From positions 22,294 through 86,293 of the forward strand of contig JACRCH010000016.1 of NCBI GenBank assembly GCA_016219115.1: a stretch of 64,000 bases of DNA, read 5' to 3'. Below are positions 3,453 through 43,362 of the stretch, piece by piece (the first letter of the stretch is position 1; each line of letters opens with the position of its first letter). Under the pieces are notes generated by a model, which did not search any database, was not told the origin of the DNA, and was given only the letters and a program-made list of their open reading frames with translations. Both the position numbers and the translations under genes were made by a program. This DNA comes from Deltaproteobacteria bacterium. Lineage in GTDB: Bacteria; Desulfobacterota; GWC2-55-46.

Positions 3453-5888
3453 ATGCGTCGTCATAGAGTCACGGTCGTCAATTATTCCTTGAGCGTCGTA
3501 GCTACGGCTCTGGCCTTATCCGCCTCCTCCTGTTCATTTAACAGGGGCGCGGCTCTGGAGGTCCCGGCTACCGCCGCCCAGCGTACCGAGGCGGCTGGCC
3601 TGACGCAAGAGGTTGACGGAGCATGCAGGCCTCAAGAGTGTTTCGGCTCGGCCATCGCCCTTTTGAGGTCCGGCGAGGCCGAGAGGGCGAAGCTTGGTCT
3701 GACGGAGCTTGCCGACCGGTATCCGGATACCGTCTGGGCCGCGCGCGCCTCGTTCGTTCTCGCCGACTTCGCCATCGAGGAGGGGAGCCGGGAAGCCCTG
3801 GGGCTCCTTGAAGACGCCTCGACGCTGACGGACATTGGCGACTATATCCTTCTAAACAAGGCGCGCGCTCTCAAAAACAGCGGCCTCCTCGATGCTTCGC
3901 TTGCCGCTTACGGCTCCCTGGACACGCTGTACCCTGACTCGGTCTTAAGGGCTGAGGCCCGGTTCCGCAAGGCCGTGGCCCTTATGGAGGCCGGCGACTA
4001 CACAAGGGCGCGCCGGGCCTTTTCGGACTTCATAAGAGACTTCCCTGACAATATCCTCGTCCCTGACGCCTTGCTCGACAGCGCCGTATCTTCTATCGTG
4101 CTCAATGAGACGACCGAGGCCGTAAAGGCGGCCAACGCGATACTCGTGCGCTACCCGGCGCACCCTCTGGCGAGATACGCCGAATCCATCGTCTCCCGGC
4201 TCAAAAAGGACGCTTCTGCGCCGGAGCTCACGACGGAGGAGAGGTTCATGAGGGCGGACAGGCTTTTTGCCAACGCCCGATACAATGACGCCGCGGCCGA
4301 GTACGCGTACATCGCTAAAAACGCCGGAGAGAGGGAGCGGCAACGCTCTACCTTCAGGCTGGCGGTCACACAGGTGCGTCTCAAGAAGTACGACCTGGCC
4401 GAGAAGACGCTCAATGGATATCTGGGGCTCAGGGAGCCTGAAAGGGAACGCGAGGCGCTCTACTGGCTCGCGTTTACGGCGGCGAGGCAGGGAAAGGAAG
4501 AGCTTTTGGGCGACACGGGAAAAAGGCTCGGGGTAAAGTACCCGAAGAGCGCGGAGAGGGCCAGGGCGATGCTCCTGCTCGCCAACCTCTATCAGGGGAG
4601 GGCCCGGCAAGATAAGGCCGTCTCCATATTCAGGCAGGTGGTAAACGAGTTCGGGGAGACCGACGCGTCGGACGAGGCGCTCTGGAGCATCGGGTGGAGC
4701 GCTTACCGCGCCGGCAGGTACCCGGAGGCGTTCAAAAGTTTCCAGTCATACCGGGATACGAACCCGAAAGGCAAAAGAAAGGGGCAGTTCCTGTACTGGT
4801 CCGGCAGAAGCCTTGAGAAGACGGGAAGGGGGAAAGAGGCCGCGGCCTACTACAACAGGGTATGCGCCGCGGACCCTGCCTATTACTGCCAGATGTCCAG
4901 AGGCCGTCTCGACGCCATTAACGGGATCAACATAAAGGCGGCTCTCACACCGCCTGAACCAATGGCCCCGAACGGCGCGCAAACCGCGGATGTCACGGCG
5001 GAGGCGCAGCGTAACGATGACTTCTACGCCGATGGGCGTAACGAAAGGACCGATGACCGGGGTGCGGACCCGCAGGAGGATCCCCGGAGCGAACTGTCGC
5101 TGGATGTCCATTATCTGGCGGCCAGGGAGCTGTTGATACTGGCCCTTCCCGCGTCAGCCTCAAAGGAACTCTCGGTACTCACCTCCATGTACACGGACGA
5201 CCCGGAGTCGCTGCAGGACCTGGCGGGCCTCTTCTATCAGGCCGAGGATTACTACAGCGCCCTAAGGATATACTATGATTATCTCTCGAAGACTGACCCC
5301 CACGAGCGGACGGACGCGGCAACAGAGCTGCGGGCGTACTCCTTCCCGCCAGGGCTTGTCGAATCGGTAAGGCATAAGGCCCCCGCGGGGGTCGACCCGT
5401 GCCTTGTGGCGGCCGTCATGAGGGAAGAGAGCTCGTTCAACCCGAAGGCCGTATCCGTCACCGGGGCCCTGGGCCTTATGCAGATAATGCCTTCCACCGG
5501 CATGTTCGTGGCGAAGGAACTCGGCAGAGCCGGCTTCGAGCCTAAGGAGCTATTGAATCCGGAGACGAACATAAGGATAGGCTCATGGTACCTGTGGTAT
5601 CTGGGAAGGAAGTACAATAACGATATAGTCCTTACCATAGCCGGCTATAACGCGGGGCCGGGGGCCGTAAAGAGGTGGCAGGAGACGCTCCCGTCGGAGT
5701 TCGACGAGTTTATAGAGTCGATCCCGTATACCGAGACGCGCAATTACGCCAAACGGGTCTTGAAGAGCTACAACGAGTTCCGCAGGGCCTCGGGGACCGC
5801 CTTTAGGCAGGGGGCGGCAATACCCGACATCCTCATACAAAAGAAGAGCCCGGCGGCCTTCGGGCGTGCCGATAAGGAAAGGTCCTGA
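3453..5888 (+). CDS. slt: soluble lytic murein transglycosylase (Slt family), TPR-rich N-terminal superhelix plus C-terminal SLT domain
   Basis: The C-terminus has the SLT catalytic region (AVMREESSFNPKAVSVTGALGLMQIMPSTG ... AGYNAGPGAV). The N-terminal signal peptide (MRRHRVTVVNYSLSVVATALALSASSC) starts at the internal ATG at 3453. The ORF-track start at 3303 is probably an upstream extension. Confidence 0.8.
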   Translation: MRRHRVTVVNYSLSVVATALALSASSCSFNRGAALEVPATAAQRTEAAGLTQEVDGACRPQECFGSAIALLRSGEAERAKLGLTELADRYPDTVWAARASFVLADFAIEEGSREALGLLEDASTLTDIGDYILLNKARALKNSGLLDASLAAYGSLDTLYPDSVLRAEARFRKAVALMEAGDYTRARRAFSDFIRDFPDNILVPDALLDSAVSSIVLNETTEAVKAANAILVRYPAHPLARYAESIVSRLKKDASAPELTTEERFMRADRLFANARYNDAAAEYAYIAKNAGERERQRSTFRLAVTQVRLKKYDLAEKTLNGYLGLREPEREREALYWLAFTAARQGKEELLGDTGKRLGVKYPKSAERARAMLLLANLYQGRARQDKAVSIFRQVVNEFGETDASDEALWSIGWSAYRAGRYPEAFKSFQSYRDTNPKGKRKGQFLYWSGRSLEKTGRGKEAAAYYNRVCAADPAYYCQMSRGRLDAINGINIKAALTPPEPMAPNGAQTADVTAEAQRNDDFYADGRNERTDDRGADPQEDPRSELSLDVHYLAARELLILALPASASKELSVLTSMYTDDPESLQDLAGLFYQAEDYYSALRIYYDYLSKTDPHERTDAATELRAYSFPPGLVESVRHKAPAGVDPCLVAAVMREESSFNPKAVSVTGALGLMQIMPSTGMFVAKELGRAGFEPKELLNPETNIRIGSWYLWYLGRKYNNDIVLTIAGYNAGPGAVKRWQETLPSEFDEFIESIPYTETRNYAKRVLKSYNEFRRASGTAFRQGAAIPDILIQKKSPAAFGRADKERS

Positions 5889-8289: not shown

Positions 8290-9783
8290 TCAGCGCGAGA
8301 AGCGTCTTTTAGCCCTTACCATCTCCAGGTTCTCCATCGCCTCCTGCGCCGGATAGATGGCTATGGCGGCGAGATACTCCCTTTCGGCCTCCTCGTATCT
8401 GCCTTTCATCTCGTAAGCGTAACCGAGGTTGAGGCGCGCCTTGAACTGTCCCGGGGATTGTTTGGCGGTATCCTCCCAGAAGGCAAGCTCGTCTCTCCAT
8501 ACATCGAGGCGGTTGAAGGATACGGCCGAGTAAAAGATGACTATGGCGGCAAGTACCGCGTAAAAAGCGGCCCTGGCCGGGGCAAAGCCTCCGCGGATCA
8601 GGTACAGGCCTTCAAGGACCCGTCCGGCCATAACAAAAAACGCTATGGCCGGCAGATACATGTATCTGTCGGCGTAGAAGACCGGTATCGGGACGATGTT
8701 CGACACCGGCAGGAACCATATCCAGAACCAGAAGAACCAGAACCGCGTCTGCCGCGTCCCCTTCCGGAGTACGAGTATGAAGACTGCGGCCCACGCGGCG
8801 AGCGAGACCGCCACAACAGGGGTTAAAAAAGAGTTGTATACGGTGGTATCGTAGTAGCCGCTCAAGCCAAATGGCCAGATGATAAGTCCGACGTACTTCC
8901 AGAATATAGGGAGCATCGTGGGGTAGACCGCCCCGAAGAGCATCGATAAAGAGAGGTTCGCGCCTTCAACCGAACCTGCGCTCACATGGGCGTAGACGGC
9001 TATGACGGAAGCCGCCGCGCTGAGCGCGAAGAACGGGATGATAGCGAGCGACCTTCTTTCGCCTTTTTTGAAAAAAAGCTCGTATGCCGAGAGCACCAGG
9101 GGGAATGTGACCGTAAGCGGCTTGGACAGAAGGGCCAGGACAAAGAGGAGCAGCGCCGCGAGGTAAGAGGAGGCCGAACCCCGCTCGCGGAACCTTAAGT
9201 AGCTTAAGAGCGCGAAAAAGGAGAAGAACGCAGCAAGAAGCGTCTTTCTCTCAGAGACCCACGCGACGTTCTCGACATTGATCGCGTGGACGGCAAAGAG
9301 GGACGCCGCGGCAAAAGACGCAACCGGGCGGCCTGTTATCCGCTTTACCACGGCATAGACAAGGGCTCCGTTGGCGGCGTGAAGCGCTATGTTGGAGAGG
9401 TGATACCCGGCGGGGTTTAAACCCCACAAAGCGTAGTCCAGCGAGTAACTCAGGAGATGGAGCGGGGCGTAGTTGCCGAAGAAGGGCCGGCCTGATATGA
9501 CCTTGAGGTTTTCCGCGGTGAGGCCGCGGATGAAGGTGTTGTTTATGACATATTCGTAGTCGTCCCACGAGGAGATGAAATCAAAGCCCAGACTCTTGAA
9601 ATAAAGGAGAAAGGAAAAGAGAAAGAGGGCCGCGTACGGAAGGAGCTTCAGCAGGGCGTTTTGCTTAGGATCTTTAATCTCCCCGGTCATTACACTGAAT
9701 CCCTCTGACGGCAGCGTTAAAATCGAGTCAGTCACCTGAGTCCGGGTATTATCAAAAATTTTATCGGTTAAGTCAACCTTCAT
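8290..9783 (-). CDS. TMTC/PMT_2-like (DUF1736) integral membrane glycosyltransferase with C-terminal TPR repeats
   Basis: Multi-TM N-terminus with DDYEYVINN... and FAVHAINVENVAWVSERK motifs shared with its paralogue at 12236-13990. The C-terminus has a TPR hairpin (LNLGYAYEMKGRYEEAEREYLAAIAIYP). Confidence 0.65.
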   Translation of the reverse strand: MKVDLTDKIFDNTRTQVTDSILTLPSEGFSVMTGEIKDPKQNALLKLLPYAALFLFSFLLYFKSLGFDFISSWDDYEYVINNTFIRGLTAENLKVISGRPFFGNYAPLHLLSYSLDYALWGLNPAGYHLSNIALHAANGALVYAVVKRITGRPVASFAAASLFAVHAINVENVAWVSERKTLLAAFFSFFALLSYLRFRERGSASSYLAALLLFVLALLSKPLTVTFPLVLSAYELFFKKGERRSLAIIPFFALSAAASVIAVYAHVSAGSVEGANLSLSMLFGAVYPTMLPIFWKYVGLIIWPFGLSGYYDTTVYNSFLTPVVAVSLAAWAAVFILVLRKGTRQTRFWFFWFWIWFLPVSNIVPIPVFYADRYMYLPAIAFFVMAGRVLEGLYLIRGGFAPARAAFYAVLAAIVIFYSAVSFNRLDVWRDELAFWEDTAKQSPGQFKARLNLGYAYEMKGRYEEAEREYLAAIAIYPAQEAMENLEMVRAKRRFSR

Positions 9784-9821
9784 CTGCCGCGGCCCGTGAA
9801 GGCGGCACGGGGCCGATAAAA

Positions 9822-9856
9822 AAACCCCGCGGGCTGAATTGCCCGCGGGGTTTTAA
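9822..9856 (-). terminator. rho-independent terminator-like GC hairpin (bidirectional)
   Basis: AAAAACCCCGCGGGC-TGAATTG-CCCGCGGGGTTTTAA has a perfect 10-bp GC stem flanked by A/T runs. It lies downstream of the minus-strand gene that ends at 10130. Confidence 0.55.
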
Positions 9857-11814: not shown

Positions 11815-12198
11815 GTGAAGAGTGAGATGAAAAAAAGAGTGCTTGTCGTCGACGACGACATATCCACCAGGGTGCTGTGCACGGAGGCTCTCAACCTGGC
11901 TGGCTACACGGTTGACAAAGCCGCTGACGGCGGCGAGGCTTTAAAAAACCTGGGCTGGCTCCGCTACGACCTTGTGATATCGGATGTGGAAATGCCCGTA
12001 TTGGACGGTATAGGGCTTTACGAGAATATCCTCAAGGAGCACCCGTACCTGAGGGACCGGGTGCTCTTCATAACCGGAAATGTCTCTAACGACAAGCTCT
12101 CCGCGCTGGAGCTTATGAAGCAAAGATATCTGCTAAAACCCTTTAAGGTGTCACACCTGCTGGATATGGCCGCGGAGATAACTAAAGACCGACCGTAA
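11815..12198 (+). CDS. single-domain response regulator (CheY-like receiver)
   Basis: All canonical receiver residues are present: VVDDD, the phospho-acceptor in LVISDVEMP, FITGN and LLKPF. Confidence 0.85.
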   Translation: MKSEMKKRVLVVDDDISTRVLCTEALNLAGYTVDKAADGGEALKNLGWLRYDLVISDVEMPVLDGIGLYENILKEHPYLRDRVLFITGNVSNDKLSALELMKQRYLLKPFKVSHLLDMAAEITKDRP

Positions 12199-12235: not shown

Positions 12236-13990
12236 GTGATTAAAATCACCGCCGCCTGCATAAATTACGCCGTATCATCCCCCGTACGGCGTAAGGGATA
12301 TTTTACCGGGGGGCGGGGATTGAGAGTCGTGGACGACAGAAAGACAAGCGCGGTATTCAGGGCCGTTATGCCGCTAGCCCTGGTGGTATTGACCGCCATG
12401 ATATATCTCAATACGCTCGGGAACGGTTTTGTCTACGACGACCACTCCCAGATAATCAGGAACCCGTGGATAAAGGACATAAGGTATCTGCCGAGCGTCT
12501 TTTCCTCCCATTCCTTCGGCTTCCTTAACAACAGCGCCGTGCCGCAATCCTACCGCCCGATGGTCTTTGTAGTCTATATGCTCGAGTACGCGGCGTTCGG
12601 GTTGCAGCCCCGGGGCTGGCACCTCCTTAACTCGGTCTTCCACGCGGTAAACAGCGTAATGGTCTTCGCATTGCTCTTAAGGCTCCTTGACGGCTACAGG
12701 CGCGGCGACTGGCAAGAGGCGCCGGTCATGCGCTATCTGCCGCCCTTTTTCGGCGCCGTGCTCTTCGCCGTTCACCCCGTAAACAGCGAACCCGTCTCAT
12801 GGGTCGGCTGCGTACCGGAACTTTTATACACATTTTTGTGCCTGACCATACTCTACTCGCACGTAAAGACCTCCGGGATAAGGCATTCACGGGACTTCAA
12901 TAACATAAGGTATTCGGTCCTGACGTCCCTGCTTTTCTTTCTCGCGATTCTTTTTAAGGAGACGGCGGTCTTCCTGCCGGCGGTCATCCTTGTATACGAT
13001 TACATGACGGCGGAAGACGGGAGGTTCCTGACCCGGCAAAGGGTCGTAAGCTACATCCCCTACGCGGCGGCATGCGCGGCGTACATCGCGGTAAGGATTT
13101 CGGCCATCGGGCATCTGGCCCCGGAGCGGCTGCACCACTCTTATCTGAGCGTATTCCAGAACCTGCTGAACGCCCCGGTGCTCCTTGCCGGGCACCTGAC
13201 GCATCTCATATTCCCCGCAGATATGCCTTTTCAGCTCTTCGCCCCGGTGCTCTCGGTGTACGAGCCCAAGTTCCTGTTGTCCGTAGCCTTTATCTCCGCG
13301 GCCTCGGCGCTTGTCATGCTCTTCTGGAAGAAGGTCCATCCGCTCTACATAATAGCGCTCTTCCTGATCCTTCTTCCGCTCATCCCTACCCTTTACACGT
13401 CGGCCATAAGCCTTTTCCCGCATGCGGACAGGTATCTCTATTTCCCGTCGATAGGGTTGTCACTCTTCCTGTCCACCGCGCTCAAGCGCTTCATGGACTA
13501 CAGTTTGAAGAACGGGAGGAGGCGCTATGTCTGGGGGGTCGCCGGGCTCTTTATGGCGGTTGCGATATTTTTTTCATGGTCAGCCGAGAAGAGGAGCCTT
13601 GTGTGGAAAGATGACTTTACACTGTGGAGCATGTCGGCCGATGGCGGGCCGGAGAATTATTTCGCCCTTTATAACATAGGCATAGTTTACTTCACGCAGA
13701 ACAGGATGGACGAAGGGATACGGAAGATGGAAGAGTCGCTTGAGGCGAACAAACTCAGGGCGCATCCGGATAAGACAATGCTTATCGGCGCCCACAGCAG
13801 TCTGGCCAGGGCCTACAAAGAGAAGGGGCTCATCCAAAAGGCGGCGGAAGAGTACCGCGAGATCCTCCGGTTTTTCCCCGAAGACGGCCAAGCCCTCCTA
13901 AACCTCAAGGCCCTATGCGCTGAAATGGAGCCGGCAGAGGGACTTGTCCCCGAGGTCTGCTCCATTTCAGCGAGGATGCCGCCCTTGTAA
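12236..13990 (+). CDS. TMTC/PMT_2-like (DUF1736) integral membrane glycosyltransferase with C-terminal TPR repeats (paralogue of 8290-9783)
   Basis: Motifs YDDHSQIIRNPWIKD, YRPMVFV...GWHLLNSVFHAVNS and FAVHPVNSEPVSWV are present, with about 11 TM helices and a C-terminal TPR region. The true start may be the internal Met near 12368. Confidence 0.65.
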   Translation: MIKITAACINYAVSSPVRRKGYFTGGRGLRVVDDRKTSAVFRAVMPLALVVLTAMIYLNTLGNGFVYDDHSQIIRNPWIKDIRYLPSVFSSHSFGFLNNSAVPQSYRPMVFVVYMLEYAAFGLQPRGWHLLNSVFHAVNSVMVFALLLRLLDGYRRGDWQEAPVMRYLPPFFGAVLFAVHPVNSEPVSWVGCVPELLYTFLCLTILYSHVKTSGIRHSRDFNNIRYSVLTSLLFFLAILFKETAVFLPAVILVYDYMTAEDGRFLTRQRVVSYIPYAAACAAYIAVRISAIGHLAPERLHHSYLSVFQNLLNAPVLLAGHLTHLIFPADMPFQLFAPVLSVYEPKFLLSVAFISAASALVMLFWKKVHPLYIIALFLILLPLIPTLYTSAISLFPHADRYLYFPSIGLSLFLSTALKRFMDYSLKNGRRRYVWGVAGLFMAVAIFFSWSAEKRSLVWKDDFTLWSMSADGGPENYFALYNIGIVYFTQNRMDEGIRKMEESLEANKLRAHPDKTMLIGAHSSLARAYKEKGLIQKAAEEYREILRFFPEDGQALLNLKALCAEMEPAEGLVPEVCSISARMPPL

Positions 13991-14192
13991 GCCGCGCTCA
14001 GTCCTCACCGTCAGTCTCCGGAGCCCTCCGGGGCTACAACTGATAGAGGTCCTCATAAGGCCCGTTTCTACGGAAAAAACCCGCCAAACGCACAATTCAG
14101 CATGTTTTCAATTGAATATTTTTGAAAGCGGATATACACTATTTATATCCGGAAAAATATTTTCGTTCAAAACCAGCGTCCCCTTAAACGAT

Positions 14193-15983
14193 ATGCTCAA
14201 AATCAAAGCGGCCGCCGTCGCCAAGATAACTCGTCCGAGTTACTTGAAGGTCCTTGACAGAAAGAGGCTTTTTACGCTCCTGGACCGATGCCGCAAGCGT
14301 CAAGCCGTATGGATAGCCGGCCCCCCTGGCTCGGGCAAGACCGTGCTTGTAAGCAGCTACATTGAAAAAAAAGGTCTTCCAGCGATCTGGTACCAGGTCG
14401 ACCCCGGCGACTCTGACGCCGCGACCTTCTTTTATTATATGCGGCTTGCGGCCCAGAAGGCCGTCCCCAGGAAGAAGACACGGCTCCCACTCTTGACCCC
14501 CGAATACATTCCCGGAATACGCGCCTTTACAAAGAGGTTCTTTGAAGGCCTCTATGCGACCGTAAAGGCCCCTTTCTGCCTGGTCTTCGACAATTACCAT
14601 GAGGTGGGCGGCTCGATCTTCCACCGGATAATAAAAGACGGACTCGAGGTCGTCCCCGAGGGCGTGAGCGTGATATTTTTAAGCAGGAGCGGACCACCGG
14701 CGGAGTTCACGAGGCTGCGGGTAAGCGGAGCCATGGAGGTCGTCGACAGGGATGAGCTGGACCTGACCGCGGAGGAGGCCCGGGCCATTACGCGCATAAA
14801 GTCCGGACCCGCCATCACGAAGCAGGCAGCTTCCGAGATGCACAAAAGGACAGAAGGGTGGGCGGCGGGCCTTATCCTCATGCTCGAGCAGGTCAAAAAT
14901 GGGGTCGCCGGCATAGAGGACTTCAAGGAGATGACCCCGAAGGCCATATTCGATTACTTCTTATCCGAGATATTCCAGAACATGGACGACGATACGCGGA
15001 CGGTGCTCCTGAAGACCGCGTTCCTGCCGGATATGGACTCAAGGATGGCGGAAAAGCTCACCCGGCTTCCGGGCGCAGGGGAAATACTCTCGAGGCTCAA
15101 CCGCAACAACTACTTTACCGAAAGGCGTTTCCAGGTCAACCCGGTCTACCAGTACCACCCGCTGTTCAAGGAGTTCCTCCTTGCAAAGGCCAGGGAATCT
15201 TTTACGGGGGCCGACATCATGGGGCTGTTAAGAAAGGCCGCGGAGATACTCGAGGAGTCGGCGAAGTACGAAGACGCCTTCAAGCTCCTGAGGGACGCCG
15301 GCGACTGGGAGGGGGTATCGCGTCTTATAGTCAGTCACGCCGGCTCGCTGGTGTCCCAGGGCAGGTGGGCCGTACTCGAAACATGGATAAGAAGCGTTCC
15401 GCCGGAGACGCTCTCCGAAGACCCGTGGCTCCGTTACTGGCTCGGCGCCTGCGGGATGCAGACCAACCCGGATGGGGCAAGGAAGGACTTCGAGGCCGCT
15501 TACGGCATATTTGCAGGCGAAGGGACCGATGTGGCGGGGATATTCCTCTCGTGGTGCGGCGCGGTGAACACCTTCCTGTACGCCTGGAGGGACTACCATC
15601 CGCTCGACGGCTGGATAGCCGGGTTCGAGGGGCTGAGGAAAAGATACGGGGAGCCGCTTCCCGAGGAGATCGAAGACAATATCGCCGCGTGCGTATTCGG
15701 GGCGCTGATGTTCCGCCAGCCCTCGCATCCCGACCTCCCGGTGTGGGAGGAGCGGGTAAAGCAGATACTCCATAGGTCAAAGGACGAAGTCGGCAGGATG
15801 AGCGTCGGCCATAACCTGATCCTCTATTACCTATGGACGGGGAGGAATTCAAAGGCGGGCCTCGTAATAGAGACTCTTTCGCCGGCGTTCAAGGGACTCA
15901 ACGCCCCGCCGCTGGCGGAGCTTATGTGGCACTTTTCCCGGGCCCTCTACTACTACCATATGGCCTCTACAGGGACGCCCTGA
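14193..15983 (+). CDS. STAND/AAA_16-type NTPase regulatory protein, N-terminal part (probably frameshifted, continues in 15833-17398)
   Basis: Walker A (GPPGSGKT) and Walker B-like (CLVFDNYHEV) motifs with a MalT/AfsR-like helical domain. The ORF ends where the +2 frame ORF takes over. The proposed start is the internal ATG at 14193; the track start at 13944 overlaps the upstream gene. Confidence 0.6.
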   Translation: MLKIKAAAVAKITRPSYLKVLDRKRLFTLLDRCRKRQAVWIAGPPGSGKTVLVSSYIEKKGLPAIWYQVDPGDSDAATFFYYMRLAAQKAVPRKKTRLPLLTPEYIPGIRAFTKRFFEGLYATVKAPFCLVFDNYHEVGGSIFHRIIKDGLEVVPEGVSVIFLSRSGPPAEFTRLRVSGAMEVVDRDELDLTAEEARAITRIKSGPAITKQAASEMHKRTEGWAAGLILMLEQVKNGVAGIEDFKEMTPKAIFDYFLSEIFQNMDDDTRTVLLKTAFLPDMDSRMAEKLTRLPGAGEILSRLNRNNYFTERRFQVNPVYQYHPLFKEFLLAKARESFTGADIMGLLRKAAEILEESAKYEDAFKLLRDAGDWEGVSRLIVSHAGSLVSQGRWAVLETWIRSVPPETLSEDPWLRYWLGACGMQTNPDGARKDFEAAYGIFAGEGTDVAGIFLSWCGAVNTFLYAWRDYHPLDGWIAGFEGLRKRYGEPLPEEIEDNIAACVFGALMFRQPSHPDLPVWEERVKQILHRSKDEVGRMSVGHNLILYYLWTGRNSKAGLVIETLSPAFKGLNAPPLAELMWHFSRALYYYHMASTGTP

Positions 15984-17398
15984 TGTCCGTCGAGGAGGGG
16001 CTCTGTCTGGCGGAAAAGACCGGGGTGCGCCTTGTAGACGAGATGCTTTTCGGGGCCGGCGCTTTAAGCAGCATCCCTCTTAACGATATCGACGGGGCGG
16101 CCAGGTTCCTTGGAAAGATGGCCGGGGTCTTGAAGGAAAAGAACTTCTTTGGAGCAATCTTCTATCACCACATTGCCTCCCTGGTGGCGCTCAACAGGGG
16201 TGATACGCTCTCAGCCGTCGAGCACGCGAGGACCTCATGGAAGATGTCGGATGAGTGCGGCGGGCCCTTTATCCAGAATATCATGCACTACGGCTTCACA
16301 TATACGCTCCTGGAGGCCGGCAAGTACAGGGGCGTGGCCAGGCGCATAGAGGAAGTGAGGAGTCTGTCGCGCCGCACTAAAAGCGCCCTCATGGAATACG
16401 CGTGTCTGCTCCTGGAGTCCCTGCTCGCGATGAAGACCGGGGACGAAAAGACATTCCTGAACAGGCTCGGCAAAGCCATGAAGCTCGGAAGCGCCCGGGG
16501 GATAAGGTTCTACACGCTCCTTCTCCACTCGTCGTCTTCCATGCTCTGCGACAGGGCTTTGAAAGAAGGGTTCGAGCCTGAGTACGTAAAGACCCTTATA
16601 AGGGCCAACAACCTCGCCGCGCCGGACCCGGAGGCCGAGGGGTGGCCGTGGCGCCTGAAGGTACACGCCCTCGGCGGTTTCGAGATGTACAGGGATGACA
16701 CGAAGATAGAGTTCTCAGGAAAGGCGCAGAAAAAACCCCTTGACCTCCTTAAGGCCGTTATCGCCATGGGCGGGCGCGACGTCAGGGAGGAGAAACTGAC
16801 CGACGCGCTCTGGCCTGATGCCGAAGGGGACGCCGCCCACAGGGCCTTTGCCACTACGCTGCACAGGCTCCGCGCCCTTTTGGGGATTGACGGAGCGATA
16901 CAGCTTAGAGAGGGGATGGTATCGCTCGACGGGAGGCGCTGCCGGGTAGATGTCCGGGAGTTTGAGCGCGCACTTGAAAAGGTCGATGAGAGGGTAAAGA
17001 AGCTCGGTTACTCTGACAGTACGGAGAACCTCCTGGAGAAGGCCCTGGGCCTGTACCGCGGCAGCTTCCTGCCGTCGGAGTCGGAGAAGGGCTGGACCGC
17101 TCCGATGAGGGAGAAGCTGAGGGGTAAGCTTTTAAGGCATATCAGGTCCGCCGGGATCTCGCTGGAGGAGGCCGGGGAGTTCTCGAAGGCGGTCGTCTGG
17201 TTCCAGACGGGTATCGAGATGGACCCGCTGGCCGAGGAACTCTACCGTCATTTAATGGTAAGTTTTACCAGGCTCGGGCAGAGGTCCGATGCCATGGCAG
17301 CGTACGAACAGCTTAAGAAAAACCTCTTTTCCAAGATAGGTTTACAGCCATCCCTGAAGACCAGGTCTGTCTATAAATCTATCTTTCCGGCCTCGTGA
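15833..17398 (+). CDS. C-terminal part of the same regulator: helical/TPR-like region plus SARP module (OmpR-type winged helix plus BTAD)
   Basis: WRLKVHALGGFEMYRDD...KPLDLLKAVIAMGGRDVREEKLTDALWPD...TTLHRLRALLG matches the OmpR/SARP wHTH. It is followed by a BTAD-like helical bundle (LEKALGLYRGSFL ... AYEQLKKNLFSKIGLQPS). It overlaps the upstream ORF by about 150 nt in another frame. Confidence 0.6.
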   Translation: MDGEEFKGGPRNRDSFAGVQGTQRPAAGGAYVALFPGPLLLPYGLYRDALMSVEEGLCLAEKTGVRLVDEMLFGAGALSSIPLNDIDGAARFLGKMAGVLKEKNFFGAIFYHHIASLVALNRGDTLSAVEHARTSWKMSDECGGPFIQNIMHYGFTYTLLEAGKYRGVARRIEEVRSLSRRTKSALMEYACLLLESLLAMKTGDEKTFLNRLGKAMKLGSARGIRFYTLLLHSSSSMLCDRALKEGFEPEYVKTLIRANNLAAPDPEAEGWPWRLKVHALGGFEMYRDDTKIEFSGKAQKKPLDLLKAVIAMGGRDVREEKLTDALWPDAEGDAAHRAFATTLHRLRALLGIDGAIQLREGMVSLDGRRCRVDVREFERALEKVDERVKKLGYSDSTENLLEKALGLYRGSFLPSESEKGWTAPMREKLRGKLLRHIRSAGISLEEAGEFSKAVVWFQTGIEMDPLAEELYRHLMVSFTRLGQRSDAMAAYEQLKKNLFSKIGLQPSLKTRSVYKSIFPAS

Positions 17399-17514: not shown

Positions 17515-17991
17515 ATGCGCCAAGGGTGTGTGAAGTGCTTAAAGTTGCCACGTATCGCGGAGGATACATTGGCAGGCGACATCAACCGGAAGAGGATTTT
17601 GGTTGTGGCCGGCGATGAGACTGTCCGGCATTTCTGCCGCGCTTCTCTCGCCCCGGACCTCTATCACGTAGAGCTTGTCTCGGGCATGCACGAGGCGCTC
17701 GGGTCCCTGAGGTCCGTGCCGTACGACCTTGTGATCTCGGATATAGAGGTCCCGAAGCTCGACGGGATAGACCTGTATATAATCATCCTCAAGAAGTACC
17801 CTTACCTCAAAAACAGATTCCTCTTCATAATCGGCGACTGCTCAACGGATCTGCCCTCGTTCTTAAGCTACGTACAGATCGGATACCTCGCGAAACCCAT
17901 AAAAATATCGGAACTTATCGAAGCCGTCGGCAAGGCCGCAGCAGAGCGGCCTATGACGCCGGGCTCAAGTTCGCGGGACCGTTCCCTGTAA
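17515..17991 (+). CDS. receiver-like protein with degenerate acidic pocket (pseudo-receiver), paralogue of 11815-12198
   Basis: YDLVISDIEVPKLDGIDLY and KKYPYLKNRFLFIIGD parallel the response regulator at 11815. The N-terminal DD pair is replaced (VVAGDE) and the conserved Thr is replaced (FIIGD). Confidence 0.55.
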   Translation: MRQGCVKCLKLPRIAEDTLAGDINRKRILVVAGDETVRHFCRASLAPDLYHVELVSGMHEALGSLRSVPYDLVISDIEVPKLDGIDLYIIILKKYPYLKNRFLFIIGDCSTDLPSFLSYVQIGYLAKPIKISELIEAVGKAAAERPMTPGSSSRDRSL

Positions 17992-18111
17992 CATCCGTGA
18001 TAATGCTCGCCGAGGGGGCCGGCACTGGGTCGAATTGACCGCAGAGGCGCAAAAAGGGGCAGGCAGGGAGTAGAGAGGGAAGGGTCATAATAACGCATAC
18101 TGGAGGTTTCA

Positions 18112-18318
18112 GTGTTTAAGATAGAGTGCGCAAGCTGCAACTCGTGGTTTCATCTCCCTTTCAACAGCGAAGGCGACGAGGTGGAATGCCCGAACTGCAG
18201 TAAAAAGACCCCGGCCAAGGACGTATACGTCGCGGCGGGGCCTTACATGATATTCAGGGAAGTGTTGATCAAAAACATGCCCAAGTACAGACGCCTCATA
18301 CTCGAGGCCGAGAAGTAG
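18112..18318 (+). CDS. zinc-ribbon domain protein (MJ0042-type CxxC...CxxC finger), possibly the N-terminal part of a disrupted gene
   Basis: MFKIECASCNSWF...ECPNCSKK has two CxxC pairs. A single TAG separates it in-frame from the EAL fragment. Confidence 0.35.
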   Translation: MFKIECASCNSWFHLPFNSEGDEVECPNCSKKTPAKDVYVAAGPYMIFREVLIKNMPKYRRLILEAEK

Positions 18319-18672
18319 ATACTCGACCTGCAGAAAAAGTCCGCGCTAAAGACCTACGACATATCAGCGAAAAGCGTCAACGCATTTATCGAAAACCTCA
18401 AGGAGATGAACGTTGACTATATCAAGATAGCCGGCTCGTTCATCAAGAACTTGAGACAGAACGTAAACGACCAGCTCTTCGTAAAGGCGATAAGCGATGT
18501 GGCCAGGGGGATGGGGATAAAGACCATAGCCGAGTTCGTGGAGTGCGTCGAGCTTCTGCCGGTACTCAAGGAGTACGGCGTGGATTACGCCCAGGGGTAC
18601 GCGATCGGCCGGCCCGCGCCCGCCCCGGAGTACAAGGGCGCCATGACGGATGCGCTCAAAGATATCGAATAA
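18319..18672 (+). pseudogene. EAL-domain (c-di-GMP phosphodiesterase) C-terminal remnant
   Basis: VDYIKIAGSFIKNL...VKAISDVARGMGIKTIAEFVECVE...GVDYAQGYAIGRP matches the last roughly 90 aa of EAL domains. The N-terminal two-thirds of the domain is absent. Confidence 0.5.
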
Positions 18673-33417: not shown

Positions 33418-33624
33418 AAATCACAAAATTCCCTGTAGTTTTCTACAGGGTTTACTTGTAAAATCCTCCCCCTCGATGGGGGAGGGAAGGGTGGGGGTGA
33501 AAACAGGTTTTCACCCTCCCCGCTTCCCGTTGCATCGGAAGAGCGCAACGGGAGCCCAGCCCTCGCAATCGAGGGAGGGCTGGGTTTAAGGAGATACCCC
33601 GGAGAAAAGCTCCGGGGTGGTTCA
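33418..33624. repeat. composite intergenic repeat (leader + R2 palindromes + R1 hairpin)
   Basis: Near-identical to 11338-11580 and 43151-43362. Confidence 0.75.
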
Positions 33625-43150: not shown

Positions 43151-43362
43151 TTTAATCACAAAATTCCCTGTAGCTTGCCGCAGGGTTTCCTTGTAAAATC
43201 CTCCCCCTTTATGGTGACGGGGGAGGGGGGGGGTGAAAAAATGTTTTCACCCTCCCCGCTTCCCGTTGTATCGGAAGAGCGCAACGGGAGCCCAGCCCTC
43301 CCATCAAGGGAGGGCTGGGCTTAAGGAGATACCCCGCTGGCAAGGCTAGCGGGGTGGTTCAT
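43151..43362. repeat. composite intergenic repeat (leader + R2 + R1) between the large-subunit and cytochrome b genes
   Basis: TTTTAATCACAAAATTCCCTGTAGCTTGCC...GGGGGAGGGGGGGGTGAAAAAATGTTTTCACCCTCCCCGCTTCCCGTTGTATCGGAAGAGCGCAACGGGAGCCCAGCCCTCCC...GATACCCCGCTGGCAAGGCTAGCGGGGTGGTTCAT. Confidence 0.75.

Follow-up and report, generated by a model that had tools for sequence, protein, structure and literature searches.

A single-base frameshift divides a regulator gene with a MalT-type NTPase and a C-terminal SARP module in a metagenome-assembled Deltaproteobacteria genome

One regulator gene in two reading frames

The stretch of DNA analysed here (64,000 nt of contig JACRCH010000016.1, from a metagenome-assembled genome (MAG) of a Deltaproteobacteria bacterium; hereafter the window) carries on its forward strand two overlapping open reading frames (ORFs), 13944-15983 and 15833-17398, which together encode a large transcriptional regulator. 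They occupy different frames, the second lying one base back with respect to the first, and overlap by 151 nt, as they had been reported in an earlier note on this DNA, made from its letters without database searches. The regulator starts at ATG 14193, which coincides with residue 1 of the full-length homologues in tblastn comparisons against the window, and the ORFs 14193-15983 and 15833-17398 are two halves of one gene of 1068 codons, in agreement with the single protein of about 1070 aa that the note had proposed and with homologues that are single proteins across the full length. In the NCBI entries the halves appear as HY889_01445 (596 aa, first half) and HY889_01450 (490 aa, second half, with GTG 15926 as the start), both described as "hypothetical proteins"; they should be annotated as one frameshifted regulator gene.

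The evidence for a single gene comes from its relatives, of which we considered the best 120 among more than 2600 proteins matched by the joined sequence. All of these except one (119 of 120) have the same domains in a single chain of 1035-1116 aa, matched at a query coverage of 97-100%, and the lone exception is the window's own first ORF (HY889_01445, Deltaproteobacteria MAG). Over its whole length the repaired protein can be aligned with the 119 full-length homologues, with E-values down to 0, far beyond chance. Its own cluster excluded, the 118 clusters listed show 39-65% identity over 97-100% of the repaired protein, while the identity with P0122, an intact protein of 1069 aa that falls together with HY889_01450 into the 90%-identity cluster of the first ORF, reaches about 93%. 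P0122 is encoded on contig L006, whose gene order corresponds to that of the window and whose DNA shares about 93% identity with it. Intact orthologues are present also at loci L001 (65% amino acid identity) and L002 (55%), both likewise syntenic with the window, and at the more distant L003 (45%), where the gene is intact as well and stands in another gene context. Two separate proteins at orthologous loci, named in the earlier note as the observation that would speak against a single gene, were not found: L001, L002, L003 and L006 each encode one protein.

When four full-length homologues were compared with the window by tblastn, the first frame was left at 15965-15974 and the second frame was entered at 15968, and in an alignment of 60 sequences the join shows no gaps save for one missing residue. 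The homology thus changes frame inside the range of 15950-15980 that had been suggested before, and also inside the string quoted in the note; the exact junction, ...ALYYYHMA[L]YRDAL..., lies three residues later than had been placed. The N-terminal part (14193-15965, 591 codons, forward strand; NCBIfam, PDB, and tblastn with residues 1-591 of the homologue P0001) comprises the STAND NTPase, the MalT winged helix and the start of a helical/TPR sensor. It is followed by an out-of-frame tail at 15966-15983 (forward strand), seen in the three-frame translation, where the full-length homology has left the frame at 15965 and the ORF reads STGTP and then TGA (15981-15983). The C-terminal part (15966-17398, 477 codons, forward strand; Pfam, PDB, and tblastn with residues 593-1066 of P0001) begins with Leu from the repaired CTC, continues with YRDAL..., contains the rest of the TPR sensor, the winged helix and BTAD, and ends at the stop codon 17396-17398. 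The 5' extension of the second ORF (15833-15965, forward strand) is open and non-homologous, being an alternative-frame reading of the DNA that codes for the N-terminal half. It includes GTG 15926, the annotated start of the second half. We considered and rejected the second ORF as an independent gene, since this GTG and the GGAG five bases before it lie within the regulator's own coding sequence, where the GGAG corresponds to the Ala-Glu codons of PLAELMW; P0122 also reads PLAELMW.

The lesion itself is located at 15964-15965 (forward strand), where the window has a run of CC and the closest intact relative has CCC, so that one base is missing and the frame moves back by one. The sequence across the join is CATATGGCCCTCTACAGG (H M A L Y R) in L006 and CATATGGCCTCTACAGG in the window; in the DNA alignment CATATGGCCCTCTACAGG of L006 is set against CATATGG-CCTCTACAGG of the window, and GCCTGCTAC of L001 against GCCT-CTAC. 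The protein P0122 accordingly reads HMALYRD at this site. Besides the lesion, the sole indel within the regulator gene with respect to L006 is one of 3 nt. Measured against a close orthologue that is intact, the change from CCC to CC breaks the frame, as is typical of a recent pseudogene. Loss of one C from the CCC run would leave the CC seen at 15964-15965; translation from ATG 14193 would then stop at TGA 15981-15983 with a product of 596 aa without the DNA-binding domain, and the SARP half would be left without a start of its own.

Domains, family and known counterparts of the repaired protein

The assignment of a P-loop NTPase, a MalT/AfsR-like helical domain, a winged helix and BTAD, made earlier from the letters, is matched by Pfam, NCBIfam and PDB comparisons. 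In the N-terminal half we read an intact Walker A motif (GPPGSGKT) and a Walker B-like motif (LVFDNYH). This half matches positions 5-411 of the 903 positions of the NCBIfam MalT model NF003420 with an E-value of 6e-57, and positions 5-410 of the MalT structure (PDB 8bob) align with residues 10-412 of the query with an E-value of 1.2e-31; a match to WHD_MalT (PF25873) is precomputed for the protein's cluster. A NOD with Walker A and B motifs, followed by a winged helix and homologous to residues 1-410 of MalT, is what characterizes the MalT clade of STAND NTPases. In the C-terminal half Pfam finds TPR_MalT and BTAD (PF03704, E-value of 2.6e-21, 77 bits against a cut-off of 22.1), and residues 820-1062 of the repaired protein align with residues 23-257 of the AfsR chain (PDB 8k60, 8hvr) and with residues 10-252 of EmbR. 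The winged helix by itself gives a weak match to Trans_reg_C (18.2 bits against a cut-off of 26.2) and lies within the alignments to AfsR and EmbR, which span both sub-domains, so that BTAD stands directly after an OmpR-type winged helix as in the SARP family. No helix-turn-helix of the GerE/LuxR type, as found at the C-terminus of MalT and other LAL regulators, was found in Pfam and NCBIfam searches of the protein, and the intact relative P0122 gave 0 families with PADLOC, hence no match to a model of a defence system such as the Avs-like anti-phage STAND systems.

The closest known counterparts are E. coli MalT and Streptomyces coelicolor AfsR. With MalT, an ATP- and maltotriose-dependent activator of the STAND/LAL type, the repaired protein shares the N-terminal 410 residues, the MalT-like TPR sensor that follows them, and the order of NTPase, sensor and C-terminal DNA-binding domain; however, its DNA-binding part is a SARP module (winged helix and BTAD), whereas MalT has a LuxR/GerE helix-turn-helix. 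The protein is not a MalT orthologue, because its score of 193 bits is far under the MalT equivalog cut-off of 537 and the LuxR-type helix-turn-helix is lacking. With AfsR, a large SARP, it shares the kinds of modules (SARP, STAND NTPase, TPR), but AfsR has an N-terminal SARP, a central NB-ARC NOD and a C-terminal TPR, while here the SARP module comes last and the NOD is of the MalT type. With the AfsR equivalog model, whose cut-off is 1430, the protein scores 49 bits, which places it outside the AfsR-type large SARPs, and its host groups are Desulfobacterota and Proteobacteria rather than actinomycetes. That the NTPase comes first and the SARP last, in the reverse order to AfsR, had been pointed out before and is correct (NOD at residues 10-412 and SARP at 820-1062 of 1068); any idea that such an architecture would be unusual finds no support, as it is very common, the 119 best homologues being full-length proteins with the same layout.

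By analogy with these counterparts we infer that the intact protein works like MalT and AfsR, on the basis of the matches to MalT, AfsR and EmbR and of published work on AfsR and MalT (PMC10936776; bioRxiv 10.64898/2026.09.02.748808). ATP and a ligand, bound at the NOD and sensor, would relieve autoinhibition and lead to oligomerisation, as in MalT, and the SARP module would then bind direct promoter repeats and recruit RNA polymerase, as in AfsR. For the SARP of AfsR, binding to direct repeats at target promoters and contact with RNA polymerase have been demonstrated (PMC10936776, PMC11301090). A search of four intergenic regions for direct repeats resembling SARP boxes yielded just one pair of 9 nt, of doubtful meaning, and a scan for promoters and terminators gave results at chance level.

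The repaired protein is an ordinary member of a large, already annotated family, whose members have about 1060-1080 aa and contain AAA_16/NPHP3_N, WHD_MalT, TPR_MalT and BTAD according to Pfam. Two names are used for them in the databases, "BTAD domain-containing putative transcriptional regulator" and "MalT/DNA-binding SARP family transcriptional activator". Unlike the named BTAD/SARP members in the databases, the copy in the window is frameshifted. The family occurs in Desulfobacterota, Nitrospirota, Burkholderiales, Chromatiales and Xanthomonadales, and a single genome frequently has more than one copy; an intact member is present in Noviluteimonas caseinilytica JCM32879 (L033), whose genome is complete. 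The combination of a MalT-type NTPase with a SARP module at the C-terminus characterizes a large family that is widespread outside actinomycetes; our literature searches for an experimental study of this layout (MalT NOD with a C-terminal SARP) found papers on actinomycete SARPs only. Synteny with the response-regulator, TPR-membrane and PilZ genes of the window is limited to L001, L002 and L006, and no neighbouring genes conserved family-wide were found among 55 more distant loci.

Origin of the frameshift

A genuine pseudogene and a sequencing indel were both among the possibilities listed in the earlier note. We consider it probable that the frameshift is a genuine mutation which inactivated the gene recently, and that the gene cluster around it is undergoing decay in the lineage of the window. 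This explanation is favoured because the zinc-ribbon/PilZ gene two genes downstream is also broken. Of the latter, whose product has 215 aa (L006) or 212 aa (L001) in the relatives, the window retains a remnant of the first 99 codons (18112-18408, forward strand), with a premature TAG at 18316-18318 in place of GAG in L006. The homology to L006 stops exactly at 18408, and from there the remnant continues in frame into the final 88 codons of an EAL-domain gene (18406-18672, forward strand; positions 168-236 of the 236 of Pfam EAL, E-value of 1.6e-19). In L001 the gene that follows PilZ encodes PAS-GGDEF, and the contig ends there; judging from these sequences, a deletion of multiple kilobases probably removed the PilZ domain together with most of what was likely a PAS-GGDEF-EAL gene. 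Both the TAG substitution and the deletion differ from an assembly error of the indel type. The assembly is also not generally indel-prone, since all further indels in the approximately 9.5 kb aligned to L006 fall between genes or right at a gene's end. The ratio of nonsynonymous to synonymous substitution rates (dN/dS) with respect to L006 is 0.17 for the N-terminal part and 0.27 for the C-terminal part of the regulator, and 0.13-0.36 for the neighbouring genes; as there is no relaxation, any inactivation must be recent.

Several observations, however, weigh against an inactivation in the organism. The contraction of a homopolymer by one base is the classic form of a consensus error and may happen at a short run of C; the unrelaxed dN/dS agrees with an artefact and with a recent mutation alike; the broken neighbour is circumstantial evidence; and the response regulator between the broken genes is intact, as are the two genes upstream. 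The source is probably a MAG from groundwater, sequenced by Illumina. It is therefore possible, even if we regard it as rather unlikely, that the organism has an intact gene with CCC and that one C was dropped in the metagenome-assembled consensus. Such an artefact would agree with the purifying selection that acts on both halves as it does on the intact neighbours, and with the source of the sequence being a MAG. On the other hand, the run comprises just three bases, no further frame-breaking indel in the middle of a gene is present in the region aligned to L006, and the nonsense substitution and the large deletion two genes downstream demonstrate that function has already been lost in this cluster. 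As regards the same population elsewhere, an exact look-up of the first ORF gave no contig, and a scan of JGI metagenome contigs that allowed for both alleles gave 0 matches; in the cluster of the first ORF each half is represented by one contig, and both ORFs are found on a single contig only.

A functional split would be an alternative to inactivation altogether. The gene could have undergone fission into an NTPase half and a TPR-SARP half that act as two proteins, the second being a free and possibly constitutive SARP activator, released from the control of the NTPase and translated by reinitiation or translational coupling at TGATG 15981-15985 or from GTG 15926. At TGATG (forward strand) an ATG of the C-terminal frame shares bases with the stop codon of the N-terminal ORF, so that a start is put on the new stop by a window-specific change from AGG, which is retained in L006 and L001; the change replaces Arg by Met (ALMSV in the window and ALRSV in P0122). 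Moreover, AGGGA stands 7 nt upstream of the new ATG, and the isolated SARP domain of AfsR has been reported to be active by itself (PMC10936776), which we count for a fission. We nevertheless find a fission very improbable. None of the 120 best homologues is split at this position, and the break divides the TPR sensor midway, at a place spanned in P0122 by positions 123-314 of the TPR_MalT profile. The new ATG is explicable by chance, because the Met falls at a variable column of the alignment (R, E, K, S and Q in relatives). AGGGA is coding sequence that is retained in L006, and the adjacent genes are decaying. Programmed -1 ribosomal frameshifting, an option left by the earlier note, by which the full-length protein would be made from the two frames, has only the geometry on its side (a downstream frame one base back and an overlap of 151 nt) and can practically be dismissed. 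The bases at the shift, G GCC TCT, do not form a slippery site, a scan of 15815-15983 for canonical heptamers (X XXY YYZ) gave none, and conservation of the split is lacking, all relatives, including the one that is about 93% identical, using a single frame.

Neighbouring genes and other features of the window

Between the regulator and the zinc-ribbon/PilZ remnant lies a gene for a CheY-type response regulator (17515-17991, forward strand; identified by Pfam and by tblastn with the response regulator-PilZ protein of L001), from which a former PilZ domain has been lost. Residues 6-125 and 208-242 of the L001 protein are present in the window according to tblastn, while residues 126-207 are missing; the segment 208-242 corresponds to what is left of the PilZ C-terminus, at 17931-18035, just after the receiver and in another frame, with 60% identity to the L001 protein. 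The loss of PilZ from this response regulator is probably older, because L006 likewise encodes the receiver only (143 aa). As the regulator adjoins genes of cyclic di-GMP signalling (PilZ, GGDEF/EAL) and is damaged together with them, a functional link between them is hinted at.

The response regulator at 17515-17991 has a paralogue at 11815-12198, also a CheY-type single-domain protein, and the two genes flank the cluster in the window as well as in L001 and L006, each of them being approximately 42-43% identical to the L001 orthologue of the other. A further pair of paralogues involves the TPR-membrane protein encoded at 12236-13990: the region 8355-9811 (about 1.46 kb), absent from L006, carries an ORF of 520 aa (8290-9852, minus strand), whose product is a distant paralogue of that protein (22% identity, E-value of 2e-17).

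Scans of the whole window (1-64000) revealed no tRNA genes and no Rfam families at the gathering threshold. The intergenic stretches 33425-33535 and 43160-43270 are copies of one element of about 90-110 nt, with about 84% column identity, which has a copy in L006 too (8870-8975). Its core is palindromic, with C-rich and G-rich parts, CCTCCCCC...GGGGAGGG...GGGGGTGAAAACAGGTTTTCACCC, and the element has the look of a repetitive extragenic palindromic (REP) element or a miniature inverted-repeat transposable element (MITE). The L006 copy sits between the response-regulator and PilZ genes, a site at which the window has no copy. Finally, directly before the start codon of the regulator, L006 carries at position 4991 (window 14183) a tandem duplication of 15 nt, AAAACCAGCGTCC..., which is present as a single copy in the window.

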